IMG/VR virus record: IMGVR_UViG_3300042398_001307
Span: 24,250 to 88,249 of that record
Source of the DNA: a virus
Length of the DNA stretch: 64,000 nucleotides
Strand: one strand, 5' to 3'
Shown here: positions 4,702 to 14,862 of the stretch, one piece after another
How positions within the stretch are numbered: position 1 is the stretch's first letter
Layout of the letters: each line of letters opens with the position of its first letter
Notes under the pieces: model-generated
Seen by the model: the letters and a program-made list of their open reading frames with translations, nothing else
Told to the model about the DNA's origin: nothing
Database searches by the model: none
Made by a program: the position numbers and the translations under genes

Positions 4702-4754
4702 CAGGCTCATTTTTTCTTGTTTGCAATAAGATTATGTTATGCTGAATTGAGCCT
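4702..4754 (-). ncRNA. scaffold RNA with anticodon stem-loop (GCA, Cys)
   Basis: AGGCTCA..CAGCA..TCTTa-TTGCAAA-cAAGA..TGAGCCTG. Confidence 0.75.
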
Positions 4755-4760
4755 AAAATT

Positions 4761-4834
4761 TGGAGCGGACTACGAGATTCGAACTCGTTTAGCTAGCTTG
4801 GAAGGCTAGAGCACAACCCATATGCCAAGTCCGC
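4761..4834 (-). tRNA. tRNA-Gly(TCC)
   Basis: Cloverleaf, CTAGC-CTTCCAA-GCTAG, CCA. Confidence 0.9.
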
Positions 4835-4843
4835 AATGTTTAA

Positions 4844-4897
4844 CAGGATACGTTTTATTTCACCAATTGAAAGTTTTGTATTTGCTGAATGTATCCT
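4844..4897 (-). ncRNA. short scaffold RNA (cargo ambiguous, possible CT-TTC-AA loop)
   Basis: AGGATAC-attCAGCAA...GTATCCTG. Confidence 0.75.
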
Positions 4898-4903
4898 AAA
4901 ACT

Positions 4904-4979
4904 TGGAGCCTCCAATAGGAATCGAACCTACAACCCCCTGATTACAAATCAGGTGCTCTACCAATTGAGCTATAGAGGC
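4904..4979 (-). tRNA. tRNA-Thr(TGT)
   Basis: Cloverleaf, CCA. Confidence 0.92.
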
Positions 4980-4987
4980 ATTATTCT

Positions 4988-5128
4988 TTAAACTTTGTGT
5001 TTAGTGCCACACACTGTACAAGTGGCGTTAACTTTTTTGAAATCAAGGTTCATTACTCGCATACCTTTTCCGTATGTTTTGTCTTGAAATTCATGATTAC
5101 AATTGCATTTCTTTACTTCTACAGCCAT
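4988..5128 (-). CDS. 46 aa zinc-ribbon-like protein (not in ORF track)
   Basis: MAVEVKKCNCNHEFQDKTYGKGMRVMN...CTVCG. Confidence 0.6.
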   Translation of the reverse strand: MAVEVKKCNCNHEFQDKTYGKGMRVMNLDFKKVNATCTVCGTKHKV

Positions 5129-5307
5129 TAGGCACCTCTTTTAATAAGAATGTTAATACGATTTTGATATTTACGTTTATCACGTGGTCTAACAGTTTTT
5201 TCAACTAGTTCTTGTAATTTAGCTAAACTAAAATTACCAATTCTAACTCTACCATTTTTAGTTTGATTAGGGTTAGCTTTTCTGTTTCCTTTACTAATAG
5301 TTGCCAT
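5128..5307 (-). CDS. 59 aa basic protein (not in ORF track)
   Basis: MATISKGNRKANPNQTKNGRVRIG..., downstream of a TTGACA-17-TATAAT promoter. Confidence 0.55.
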   Translation of the reverse strand: MATISKGNRKANPNQTKNGRVRIGNFSLAKLQELVEKTVRPRDKRKYQNRINILIKRGA

Positions 5308-5327
5308 TTGATGTCCTTATTATACTA

Positions 5328-5609
5328 TTACTTATTGTTGCTGTCAAGTGTTTTTATATTTTCTTCGATAAATTTAATTGCTTCATCGACTGGTAATTCA
5401 CCCACTTCTACATGAAATACATTTCTGTCTTGTGCATGAGCACCATGTGAATTAAATGCTACCTTTGGCAATTCTTTATCGTTGGTTGTACCTAACACTT
5501 CTTCAACAACTTCCTTTTTCTTACCGAAAATTGCATCCCAGTTATCTGCAAACTTCTGCCTGTTAACTGGTCTAGCTGCACTTCCTTTGCCGCCATGCCA
5601 TCCTGCCAT
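5328..5609 (-). CDS. hypothetical protein
   Basis: N-terminal WHGGKGS..R..FADNWDAIFGKK motif. Confidence 0.6.
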   Translation of the reverse strand: MAGWHGGKGSAARPVNRQKFADNWDAIFGKKKEVVEEVLGTTNDKELPKVAFNSHGAHAQDRNVFHVEVGELPVDEAIKFIEENIKTLDSNNK

Positions 5610-5821
5610 TGTATCTCCGTTACATTTTTGTTGCCAATATAGTTTTGGCTAATTCTTTTGTTGCGATTAAATCATTCTGACTAAATGAACTTTTAATCTT
5701 TTCTGAAAATTCAATTCTTTCTTCTATTGTCATTAATCTATAAATTATTTTTATCAATTCATAATCAAATTCAGTTGGTTCTTCTAAATTTTCAAACATA
5801 ATAATTATCTAGTCAGTGTGT

Positions 5822-6154
5822 TTAAATTTCAGGTTGAGTTTTTATAAATCGATCAATATTTTGAATCATCAATTGTTTCAACCTAACTTTATCATATTCA
5901 GGTTCTTTTAAACATTCTGGAAGTGTTAGCCTGAATAAAGTTTCTTTTTCTTCATCATATATGGATAATGCCCATATCTGTGTTCCACAGAATCCACTAG
6001 CAGCTAATAATATCATTTGCCACCCATCACCTTTAATAAAACTATGGGTGCGTTGCAATCGTGGTCCAACATTTGTTTTCAGAAAATCAAAAGTATTAGC
6101 TAATCTATTTTGATAATCTTCACCATAAGAATTGTTTCCGTGTATTACTAGCAT
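5822..6154 (-). CDS. hypothetical protein
   Basis: Probable start MLVIHG after GAGG RBS; the longer ORF overlaps tRNA-Ala. Confidence 0.5.
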   Translation of the reverse strand: MLVIHGNNSYGEDYQNRLANTFDFLKTNVGPRLQRTHSFIKGDGWQMILLAASGFCGTQIWALSIYDEEKETLFRLTLPECLKEPEYDKVRLKQLMIQNIDRFIKTQPEI

Positions 6155-6174
6155 TTGTGCCTCTGTGTTAAAAT

Positions 6175-6248
6175 TGGTGGAGACTAGGAGAGTTGAACTC
6201 CTGATAACGCCGTGCAAGGGCGTGGTTATACCATTTAACTAAATCCCC
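6175..6248 (-). tRNA. tRNA-Ala(TGC)
   Basis: Cloverleaf, G3-U70, CCA. Confidence 0.92.
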
Positions 6249-6251
6249 GGT

Positions 6252-13331: not shown

Positions 13332-13584
13332 ACCTAATTAGTCTAATTTTATATTAAAATGCATTAAACGAGGGAACACGAATGCTATACATTCTCCTGT
13401 CTCCGGCCCTCAAGCTTAACATCCTTCTGGCCAGTGATGTCAAGGTGACTGATTAATGCACTTTAATATAAAATCATATAATAAAGCATACTACACGGAA
13501 TTGAACCGTCTTCATTCAAGCCAGGAGCTCAAACTGTGATCCACACAACGCTGATCAGACGCTAATATGCTTTATTATATGATT

Positions 13585-13660
13585 TGGTAGGACCGCCGAG
13601 ACTCGAACTCGAATTCCCGGATTAAAAGTCCGGTGTTCTAACCAATTGAACTACGATCCC
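13585..13660 (-). tRNA. tRNA-Lys(TTT)
   Basis: Cloverleaf, CCA. Confidence 0.92.
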
Positions 13661-13726
13661 AAATTTTCTTGCCTTCTTTTTCTGTTTTTGTCTTTCGTTT
13701 CATAATTATTTCCTATGTTGTTATAG

Positions 13727-13788
13727 CAGGATACGTTTTTACTAGTTGAATTAAAAGTTCAGTGTAAATTGTTTGCTGAATGTATCCT
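13727..13788 (-). ncRNA. scaffold RNA with anticodon stem-loop (TTT, Lys)
   Basis: AGGATAC..CAGCAA..TGAA-CTTTTAA-TTCA..GTATCCTG. Confidence 0.85.
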
Positions 13789-13807
13789 AAAACTGTTTAT
13801 GCTGTTA

Positions 13808-13835
13808 ATTATACAGCATTTTTATACGTTGTCAA
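13808..13835 (-). promoter_or_regulatory. sigma70-type promoter
   Basis: TTGACA-16-TATAAT directly upstream of a scaffold RNA. Confidence 0.75.
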
Positions 13836-14148
13836 TTATTTTATCTGGATATTGTGCATCACGGCGTTCAATTTCAGCATATGGACTGTATCCAGGCTGT
13901 AATTCCGTGATATTAGTAAATCCATTGGTTTCTGTAATCAAACTATCATTAGAATCGATAGAACCACGATATTTACTACCATAACTACCTTCTAATTTAC
14001 CAGTACTCGGATTAAGATCACCCCATTTAGTGTGATTACCACCGATAACTTCAATATAGTAAGTTTTACCAGTTCTGTATGAATAAACAACATGTCTACC
14101 GGTATCTTCAGTTTTTGTAAAAAATTTCTTTCGGGTTTCTTCGTCCAT
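13822..14148 (-). CDS. hypothetical protein
   Basis: 108 aa ORF with AAGGA RBS; WGDLNPSTGK motif. Confidence 0.7.
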   Translation of the reverse strand: MDEETRKKFFTKTEDTGRHVVYSYRTGKTYYIEVIGGNHTKWGDLNPSTGKLEGSYGSKYRGSIDSNDSLITETNGFTNITELQPGYSPYAEIERRDAQYPDKIIDNV

Positions 14149-14166
14149 AATAGTTTCCTTTGTGTT

Positions 14167-14240
14167 TGGTGCCTCCTGATAGAATCGAACTACCGCAACC
14201 AGTGTGTAAGACTAGTGTTCTCCCATTAAACTAAGGAGGC
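14167..14240 (-). tRNA. tRNA-Val(TAC)
   Basis: Cloverleaf, CCA. Confidence 0.92.
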
Positions 14241-14246
14241 TAAAAT

Positions 14247-14415
14247 TGGTGCTTTCTTATTCCCGGCTATCACAGAGGTTGCCACTTGTACTTCATGGTT
14301 CTCAACTTGCAGGTTCTGGCGGAACAGAATTCTCGTATTGCCAACGTGCTTTTGGTTCAAAGCATACCACCCGTGTGTATCACCACACTTCTTATCCTCT
14401 GGGTCAGAGTATCCG
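14247..14415 (-). ncRNA. candidate structured RNA ending in ACCA
   Basis: GC-richer ORF-free segment with several hairpins inside CAGAGG/CCTCTG. Confidence 0.5.
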
Positions 14416-14419
14416 TTGA

Positions 14420-14698
14420 TTAGACAGATCGTTCTTCAAGTACTTGTTGTTCCCATTTGCTTTTTAAATAGATTTTTTTACCATGCAACCAATATTCTTC
14501 TTCTGTGAAATTAGTAATAACAGCAGGGCCGTGTTCATTATGATATTTCCCATTTTGACAATAACAAGTTCTGCGGCCATCATATCTAATAATTGCTGGG
14601 CCATCTGTATTATGCGATACCCCATTCTTCATAAAAACTACTGTTGTATCAGATACGCTAATAGTGAGTTCAGGATTTTCTGGGTTAATATATTTCAT
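14420..14698 (-). CDS. HxxxGPA-repeat (MORN-like) protein
   Basis: HNTDGPAI and HNEHGPAV repeats. Confidence 0.65.
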   Translation of the reverse strand: MKYINPENPELTISVSDTTVVFMKNGVSHNTDGPAIIRYDGRRTCYCQNGKYHNEHGPAVITNFTEEEYWLHGKKIYLKSKWEQQVLEERSV

Positions 14699-14723
14699 AA
14701 TTACCAAATTGTAAAGTTAAAAT

Positions 14724-14799
14724 TGGTGCTACCGACTGGGATCGAACCAGTATAGCTGGATTTTCAGTCCAATGCATGAACCATCACTGCCACAGTAGC
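14724..14799 (-). tRNA. tRNA-Phe(GAA)
   Basis: Cloverleaf, CCA. Confidence 0.9.
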
Positions 14800-14807
14800 A
14801 AAATTAT

Positions 14808-14862
14808 CAGGATACGCTTTTTCATTTTTCAAGAATGTTTTTTTAATTGCTGCATGTATCCT
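14808..14862 (-). ncRNA. scaffold RNA with anticodon stem-loop (TGA, Ser)
   Basis: AGGATAC..CAGCAA..CATT-CTTGAAA-AATG..GTATCCTG. Confidence 0.85.

Follow-up and report, generated by a model that had tools for sequence, protein, structure and literature searches.

Why would a phage carry, scattered among its tRNA genes, short RNA elements that look like isolated anticodon arms? The question is raised by a 64,000-nucleotide stretch of viral DNA (positions 24,250 to 88,249 of the IMG/VR record IMGVR_UViG_3300042398_001307; henceforth the window, numbered from its first letter), which is phage DNA of ~35% G+C with 26 tRNA genes at 4499-19206, on the minus strand throughout (ARAGORN). Between these genes lie copies of a repeated scaffold, and five of the shorter copies had been predicted from the sequence to present anticodon-type hairpins as competitive decoys for anticodon nucleases or tRNA-modifying enzymes. 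Each of the five hairpins does exist, co-stranded with the tRNA genes. Comparison with related loci establishes the anatomy of these RNAs, their conservation, the anticodon-like statistics of their loops and their genomic tie to the gene of a Ro-like protein. The conserved part of the scaffold, here called the handle, together with that tie and the likeness to anticodon arms, leads us to regard the hairpins as modules of a phage particle of the Ro/Y type: probably, they are the variable anticodon-arm modules of a Y-RNA-like family whose handle docks on the Ro-like protein, so that the particle presents an anticodon arm.

The handle and its hairpins

Read in the RNA sense, the scaffold consists of U, a 7-nt strand starting AGG, 3 nt, CAGCA, an insert, an A-rich run, the complementary strand and G. 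The handle is an 8-bp helix (P1; a U·G pair, then AGG/CCU) whose 5' strand runs on into 3 nt and an invariant CAGCA and whose 3' strand is preceded by an A-rich run; in the element at 14809-14862, P1 is AGGAUAC/GUAUCCU plus the U·G pair, followed by AUG and CAGCA. About 20 handle copies lie at 2695-14862 of the window, and in the window and its relatives the copies form two length groups, ~50-65 nt and ~95-125 nt and longer. The comparison covered 198 sources, namely the window and 197 loci (L001-L197), of which 80 encode relatives of the Ro-like protein and 117 were found by a handle-only DNA pattern; the sources were gathered by this pattern and a protein query, and the loop was not used as a criterion. 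A regular-expression scan (fully paired 7-bp stem starting AGG or AGA, U before it and G after it) found 571 handle copies, 421 of them distinct, in 177 of the 198 sources, and its strictness means that diverged copies are missed, such as the leader copy of the window and a CUGCA variant at 3250-3465. Copies occur on both strands in only one source, and all 2564 tRNA genes of the handle-bearing sources are co-stranded with the copies (0 opposite), which argues for an RNA family and not a DNA repeat.

In an alignment of the 37 anticodon-type short copies, P1 is paired in 99.7% of cells, with four of its eight pairs varying on both sides, and CAGCA is invariant. Pairing of a further helix, P2 (UUUAC/GUAAA), is limited to 48.5% of cells, which makes P2 a subfamily trait at most. 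The stem of the module is paired in 92.9% of cells and all five of its pairs vary on both sides; the four inner pairs were a selection criterion for the alignment, and the fifth, which was not, is paired in 27 of 36.

The prediction that all five window hairpins (Table 1) fit the 7-nt YU-NNN-RA pattern of an anticodon loop stands for four of them, which have clean stems (three of 4 bp, one of 5 bp) and CU-NNN-AA loops. It stands less simply for the fifth (4703-4754), whose loop counts 7 nt only when an A·C mismatch is taken as the closing pair; without that mismatch, 9 nt are left open above 4 bp, and the L007 orthologue likewise has a loop of 9 nt. The short copies lack D, T and acceptor arms. 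The hairpin of 11579-11641 recurs in L007 and L100, and its stem is strand-swapped in L022, while the CAA triplet of 7177-7238 is replaced by GAA (CUGAAAA) in the orthologue of L001/L002, where the Ro-like protein is 97% identical. A tRNA-Lys(UUU) gene (13585-13660) follows 68 nt downstream of the element at 13728-13788.

The anticodon-type hairpins are not due to chance, since they fit the pattern far more often than shuffled sequences. In a first set (the window and the 80 loci), 24 of 73 distinct short copies form a 7-nt YU-NNN-RA loop on a stem of 4 bp or more, 23 of these being CU-NNN-AA, against means of 0.80 and 0.25 and maxima of 5 and 3, respectively, in 500 shuffles. In the larger set of 198 sources, 87 of 207 distinct short copies fit, 84 of them with CU-NNN-AA (shuffles, ~1%), as do 26 of 78 cluster representatives (0.86 in 300 shuffles, maximum 4).

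Across 40 distinct stem and loop combinations, the stem has 5 bp in 27 and 4 bp in 13 and is never longer. C32, U33, A37 and A38 of the loop are kept and the triplet varies, being UUU in nine combinations, UGU and GUU in four each, UGA, GGA and UCU in three each, GUA, GCU and GCA in two each, and AUU, ACG, GGU, CAU, GAA, CGA, CUU and CAA in one each, counts that are not phylogenetically independent. The first base of the triplet is U in 19, G in 15, C in 4 and A in 2 (one of them ACG); among the anticodon arms of the tRNA genes in these loci (1093 distinct), it is U in 484, G in 367, C in 196 and A in 46. For UUU, UGU, GUU and UGA, the loop seen most often in the phages' own tRNAs is the module loop letter for letter. 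First-base usage and loop identity together indicate that the module loops copy genuine anticodon loops, which bears out the claim that the triplets are anticodons of real tRNAs; judged from sequence, tRNA mimicry by the modules holds.

One stem may carry different triplets in different phages, as do UUCAA/UUGAA (UUU, UGU or GUU) and UUAGA/UCUAA (UUU, UGU or UCU). Counted by locus, UUU makes up 32 and UGU 20 of 112 locus-triplet pairs, and GUU is joint fourth, behind GUA. A module is co-located with a tRNA gene of the same anticodon in 66 of the 112, against 60.7 expected (p ~0.10), which is not significant overall. A tRNA-Lys(UUU) gene is present within ~1.2 kb, on either side, of UUU-type modules in 27 of 34 cases (L001-L197 and the window), possibly by shared synteny.

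Besides a T arm and a D arm, the long copies contain an acceptor stem closed by a loop, and several are tRNA bodies with a YrlA-like topology, which is that of the tRNA-like Y RNAs bound by bacterial Ro60 (PMC4201824). The Rfam YrlA model (RF02553) matches weakly at 7887-8012, 4273-4385 and 11132-11243, the long copies scoring 41.6, 38.7 and 31.8 bits, all below the gathering score of 69; the short copies give no match to this model. The notion that the long copies are circularly permuted tRNA genes awaiting splicing was dropped, as their anticodon stem keeps only ~3 bp and, as in YrlA, is attached to the handle. The copy at 10515-10604 (minus) has an anticodon loop CUGUAAU with a long variable arm, a T arm and a 3' end with CCA, and that at 11143-11260 (minus) has a full anticodon arm (AUUGUAA loop), a T arm and a D-arm-like piece; since these are different tRNA parts, the handle was apparently grafted at different tRNA positions. 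Handle elements seem to be gained and lost as units: an RNA-library contig of a related phage skips exactly the element at 7636-7768 (joint 7623 to 7767, 3 letters shared). Another such contig skips the open reading frame at 11299-11556 (joint region 11298-11590).

The handle RNAs may be expressed as separate small RNAs. Near-consensus promoters stand directly before three of the five hairpin-bearing window elements, and seven perfect TTGACA-N16/17-TATAAT matches, all on the minus strand, occur in 4000-16500, several of them directly before handle copies or tRNAs; the total of promoter-like sites in this interval is not above shuffles. Contigs from three metatranscriptome runs of one freshwater sample are 90-99% alike over 13524-14172, 14239-15254, 4266-4903 and other parts. 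These we count as no evidence of transcription, because they come from one study, may stem from DNA carry-over and do not show RNA ends.

The Ro-like gene and cultured phages

The presumed partner of the handle is encoded directly downstream of the array by the gene for a 470-aa DUF2828/DUF7788 protein. In 51 of the 80 related loci, the leader of this gene contains a short handle copy that stops 14-17 nt short of the ATG and may let the Ro-like protein regulate its own mRNA. In five complete phage genomes, all eight matches (E up to 0.01) of R1, a covariance model built from the 37 anticodon-type short copies, lie on the strand of the gene, no farther than 10 kb from it. Among leader copies, the most frequent type (stem AGAAUGU; L021-L080, for example L030, L043 and L070) bears a conserved hairpin with a 9-nt loop, UUUUC-AAGCAUAUC-GAAAA and variants, which is a second module class.

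Members of the DUF2828 family are present in 710 cultured phage records, and the mycobacteriophage homologues carry the label 'Ro-like RNA binding protein' (identity 32-35%, E 1e-60 to 1e-65). A von Willebrand factor A (vWA) domain makes up the C-terminal half; VWA_2 matches it in 46 and vWA_Ro60 in 12 of the 67 members of the family alignment (67 rows chosen by hand from 270 proteins). Aligned by hhalign with 32 TROVE/Ro60 proteins (chosen by hand from 120 listed), the family gives a probability of 80% (E 1.3e-5) over residues 227-438, the vWA part, with DVSGSM placed on the MIDAS motif of the TROVE proteins and the C-terminal SGF motif aligned too. The top PDB profile matches are likewise TROVE/Ro60 proteins, weak (E 0.036-0.78) and in the vWA region, while phmmer of the Ro-like protein against PDB found nothing; the nearest named ESM Atlas clusters are TROVE + vWA_Ro60 (25 of 30 matches, score 0.93). 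The DUF2828/vWA protein thus appears to be Ro-like in part.

Several cultured phages carry the handle beside this gene. In Mycobacterium phage Whirlwind, the 'Ro-like RNA binding protein' gene is followed at 40-300 nt by a tandem of short, long YrlA-like and anticodon-type copies, including UUUCA-CUGCUAA-UGAAA (41 bits) at 240 nt. Campylobacter phage CP39 has CAUUA-CUGCUAA-UAAUG (38 bits) 95 nt before the homologue, and Bacillus phage FADO has ACAAU-CUUUUAA-AUUGU (23.5 bits), so that the anticodon-type module is shared by phages of Actinobacteria, Firmicutes and Campylobacter. R1 also finds a handle copy beside the gene in Cyanophage BUCT-ZZ01, where the order of tmRNA, tRNA and gene is the same as in the window. 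In Escherichia phage vB_EcoM_AYO145A (Felix O1 group; L199, 8756-9552), inspection by eye and by regular expression revealed four copies, one of them long and tRNA-like, between an 'RNA-binding protein' gene and tRNA genes, with P1 AGACCNN, 3 nt and CAGCAA.

Listeria phage P100 has three handle copies just upstream of its homologue (AG20 and P100 homologues: 35% identity, E ~1e-80), at the place where transcription has been described in Listeria phage CKA15. The 56.8-kDa CKA15 homologue, reported in virions, has Deinococcus radiodurans Rsr as its best HHpred match, and three very highly transcribed unannotated regions lie on the same strand no more than 2 kb upstream of it, which the authors suggest may be Y RNAs (PMC12282133).

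Possible roles of the modules

The handle would dock on the neighbouring DUF2828/vWA protein as Y RNAs dock on Ro60, and the modules would present tRNA parts to tRNA-binding factors, the long members with a tRNA body as module and the short members with a mimic of the anticodon arm alone. With an anticodon arm as the module of the short members, the particle would offer this arm to readers of anticodon loops. The likeliest use of the modules would be to bind or distract host anticodon nucleases, or other proteins that bind anticodon loops, early in infection.

A number of results weigh against this reading. On the side of the protein, Pfam TROVE (PF05731) has no match in the 470-aa protein, its 66 aligned relatives or the record, and the helical N-terminal half gave no alignment to Ro60 in hhalign against either one Bxz1 TROVE protein or the 32 TROVE proteins. 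On the side of the RNA, the Y-RNA motif GNCGAA/CGAA was not found in the 37-copy alignment. Folded alone, the window hairpins have energies between +0.1 and +1.7 kcal/mol at 37 C (15 C: -0.2 to -2.0), and the minimum-energy fold of each whole window element excludes its hairpin. G-C pairs account for ~19% of module stem pairs, against 60% G+C among the bases of the phages' tRNA anticodon stems. Conservation in homologues of U33, R37 and the 7-nt size, on which the original prediction was to be judged, was found for the anticodon-type subclass, but 120 of the 207 short copies have other loops, mostly of 9 nt. Neither the three short copies seen in AYO145A nor the two in P100 have a CU-NNN-AA loop, and since R1 was trained on anticodon-type loops, its matches in distant phages lean to such loops.

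Some of these results can be explained if the hairpin is only a structural cap, in which CU...AA is kept as a compact U-turn that ends a weak helix or touches the protein, and the triplet drifts with no functional tRNA mimicry. Leader copies, and numerous other short copies, are closed by a plain hairpin whose loop often has 9 nt; the leader copies of L058, L076 and L078 carry an anticodon-type hairpin, which makes a purely structural cap possible; the stems are weak and A/U-rich; the E. coli and Listeria phage copies have different loops; and the triplet differs even between relatives as close as the window (CAA) and L001/L002 (GAA). The cap is a serious rival, which we nevertheless consider unlikely, since it leaves the anticodon-like first base unexplained. 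With 58% A and 6% G in the inserts that surround the hairpins, drift should yield many A-first triplets, which are seen in only 2 of 40, whereas G comes first in 15 of 40, matching real tRNAs. Nor would a cap account for a stem that never exceeds the 5 bp of a tRNA, or for the 39 of 40 distinct hairpins whose triplet we class as an anticodon used by bacteria.

Under the favoured reading of the modules as presented anticodon arms, a special case is that they are specific decoys or competitive inhibitors of host anticodon nucleases such as PrrC, RloC and the PARIS nuclease AriB. The background to this proposal, that tRNA-Lys anticodon loops are nuclease targets, is in print for PrrC, which takes its main cues from the anticodon stem-loop of tRNA-Lys (PMC1484252). 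UUU and UGU, the prime targets of AriB (tRNA-Lys and tRNA-Thr), are the top triplets both by hairpins and by loci, which is only suggestive; GUU, a secondary target, is joint second by hairpins but merely joint fourth by loci, and composition favours U-rich triplets. Of the 40 modules, 23 contain U36-A37-A38-U39, a motif conserved near the AriB cleavage site (PMC12409363), and the module at 11599-11615 and a UUU module of L188 read UAAUCA, the site of E. coli tRNA-Lys; the modules also stand behind strong early-type promoters. On the other hand, AriB needs base-specific contacts in the D-loop that a bare hairpin does not offer, at least 17 triplets occur, many of them with no known nuclease, co-location with same-anticodon tRNA genes is at the level given above (66 of 112 against 60.7), and the hairpins are barely stable alone at 37 C. 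As a specific claim, decoys for these nucleases are doubtful.

The genuine anticodon triplets in U-turn loops would also suit modules that act by codon-anticodon or loop-loop pairing, for instance with the Ro-like particle in the empty A site of a stalled ribosome or with an mRNA, and the array stands among ribosome-rescue and tRNA functions (permuted tmRNA, peptidyl-tRNA hydrolase, YqeY); the stems are weak, however, and nothing resembles the remaining tRNA parts that ribosomal sites contact, so this seems very improbable. Decay of tRNA genes, recombination scars of a shuffled tRNA array or chance in A/T-rich DNA would be in keeping with the GIY-YIG homing endonuclease genes present within the array, the tRNA fragments inside other handle copies and the relative that lacks exactly one element. 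Such an origin is scarcely credible for elements with an invariant handle, a covarying helix and promoters of their own, whose module is conserved in phages of three host groups and whose loops depart from the shuffle controls; module stems unlike those of the phages' tRNAs show that they are not recent tRNA copies.

Known relatives and genomic setting

Ro60 with tRNA-like Y RNAs is already known in bacteria and phages (PMC4201824; PMC12135203). As the bacterial and mycobacteriophage Y RNAs are described (YrlA, YrlB, Yrn1/Yrn2; Ro60/Rsr; Chen et al. 2014, PMC4201824), they are likewise small RNAs beside, and co-stranded with, a Ro-type gene, their 5' and 3' ends pair into a stem with a conserved motif on the 5' strand, they have a variable tRNA-mimic module, and each species also has a simple hairpin-type Y RNA. 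They differ in their motif (GNCGAAN0-1G, against CAGCA(A) in the phage handle), in their partner (the TROVE protein Ro60/Rsr, against a DUF2828/DUF7788 protein with no Pfam TROVE match here), in number (2 Y RNAs per genome, against ~20 handle RNAs) and in their module, which in the short phage RNAs is a bare anticodon arm with varied genuine anticodons. Yrn1 of D. radiodurans can be drawn with a 5-bp 'anticodon arm', but with a loop of 6 nt where the phage modules have 7 (PMC4201824).

Thermus phage phiLo also has a phage Ro-type vWA ring protein with Y-like RNA genes (Yrl1/Yrl2) just upstream, and its authors propose that Ro60 aids phage escape from host defence; its protein, however, is a TROVE protein (PDB 9KOP/9L5Y), its RNAs have the CGAA motif, and anticodon-arm modules are not reported in the available part of the paper (PMC12135203). 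The regions upstream of CKA15_055 in Listeria phage CKA15 resemble the handle array in protein family and in their position downstream of tRNA genes, but that paper, in the part available, defines no RNA structure or handle (PMC12282133), and the P100 copies differ in their loops. The tRNAs for Lys, Thr and Asn of phage T5 are RNAs of a tRNA cluster with UUU, UGU and GUU, the anticodons of the tRNAs cut by the defence nuclease PARIS AriB; they are complete, decoding tRNAs that replace those cut and avoid UAAU (U39 to A) (PMC12409363), whereas the phage modules are hairpins that cannot be charged and keep UAAU in 23 of 40. The CAGCA handle, the pairing with DUF2828, arrays of ~20 copies and bare anticodon-arm modules were not found in the literature searched or in Rfam 15, a search that did not extend to the supplement of Chen et al. 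2014 (S1/S2, Fig. S4; 22 phages, hairpin-type Y RNAs).

Among the known Y RNAs are mimics of the tRNA elbow; the phage handle displays the opposite end of the tRNA, with anticodons that change between relatives. Display of an anticodon arm narrows the possible partners to readers of anticodon loops, among which immune nucleases that cut tRNAs are now known to be common. In its widest form the proposal would be that many phage lineages have a second kind of Ro/Y particle, with a DUF2828/vWA ring-like protein, a universal CAGCA handle and interchangeable tRNA parts as bait, the anticodon-arm members being triplet-specific bait that captures or blunts anticodon nucleases (AriB, PrrC/RloC and others), which we think improbable as a whole; if the modules are bait, an arms race would have left its mark in the fast turnover of triplets while the hairpin stayed fixed. 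Handle RNAs would explain the very highly transcribed unannotated regions of the Listeria phage transcriptome. Cultured phages of Bacillus subtilis, Mycobacterium smegmatis, Campylobacter, Listeria and E. coli put the system within reach of experiment, and AYO145A offers an E. coli model for the handle-RNA family.

At gathering scores, Rfam recognizes in the window only tRNAs, a permuted tmRNA and a Polynucleobacter-1 RNA (Table 1), and no known ribozyme or riboswitch family fits the handle RNAs. The sole Rfam match of the short copies at E up to 5, to the Dictyostelium Class I RNA (E 0.057-2.2), was taken as noise from a stem with an A-rich loop. Megablast with 12 kb of the window gave tRNA-sized matches only and found no close cultured relative.

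Table 1. Handle RNAs, promoters and neighbouring features in the window
Position	Strand	Feature	Basis or remark
594-1034		YqeY/GatB-like gene	adjoins Ro-like gene
1265-2677	minus	gene for 470-aa DUF2828 + DUF7788 (vWA) protein, presumed partner	Pfam; directly downstream of array
2695-2734	minus	handle copy without cargo or hairpin, 5' leader of Ro-like gene	ends 17 nt before ATG at 2677
3475-3580, 3591-3681, 4276-4385, 4396-4493, 7249-7335, 7548-7625, 7636-7768, 7907-8028, 10091-10202, 10515-10604, 11143-11260	minus	long handle copies with tRNA-part inserts	within span 3475-11260
4703-4754	minus	short handle RNA, imperfect module UCUU(A)-UUGCAAA-(C)AAGA (GCA) at 4715-4731	R1 44.7 bits
4845-4897	minus	short handle RNA, UUUCA-AUUGG-UGAAA, 5-nt loop, not anticodon-like	R1 56.6 bits
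7177-7238	minus	short handle RNA, module CAAU-CUCAAAA-AUUG (CAA) at 7197-7211	R1 69.2 bits
11579-11641	minus	short handle RNA, module UUUGA-CUGCUAA-UCAAA (GCU) at 11599-11615	R1 70.1 bits
11661-11688	minus	perfect TTGACA-16-TATAAT promoter match	just upstream of element 11579-11641
12063-12551		peptidyl-tRNA hydrolase PTH2 gene	
13728-13788	minus	short handle RNA, module UGAA-CUUUUAA-UUCA (UUU) at 13747-13761	R1 71.7 bits
13808-13835	minus	perfect TTGACA-16-TATAAT promoter match	just upstream of element 13728-13788
14809-14862	minus	short handle RNA, module CAUU-CUUGAAA-AAUG (UGA) at 14823-14837	R1 66.6 bits
14875-14903	minus	TTGCAA-17-TATAAT promoter match, 10/12	just upstream of element 14809-14862
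14886-15416		dual-specificity phosphatase gene	
17829-17975	minus	Polynucleobacter-1 RNA	Rfam; just upstream of tRNA array
19132-19206	minus	tRNA, anticodon CUA (amber suppressor type; ARAGORN label Pyl)	just upstream of tRNA array
19289-19588	minus	permuted (two-piece type) tmRNA	Rfam; just upstream of tRNA array

Functions in translation and at RNA ends flank the handle RNAs and the Ro-like gene (YqeY, PTH2 and the phosphatase). In Cronobacter phage GAP32 (L204, 6504-7769), an RNA ligase gene lies directly upstream of the DUF2828 homologue, with a CCA-adding enzyme nearby. Farther along the window, 22358-24412 (minus) encodes a 684-aa CHASE2 sensor fused to an adenylate/guanylate cyclase domain, which is unusual in a phage.

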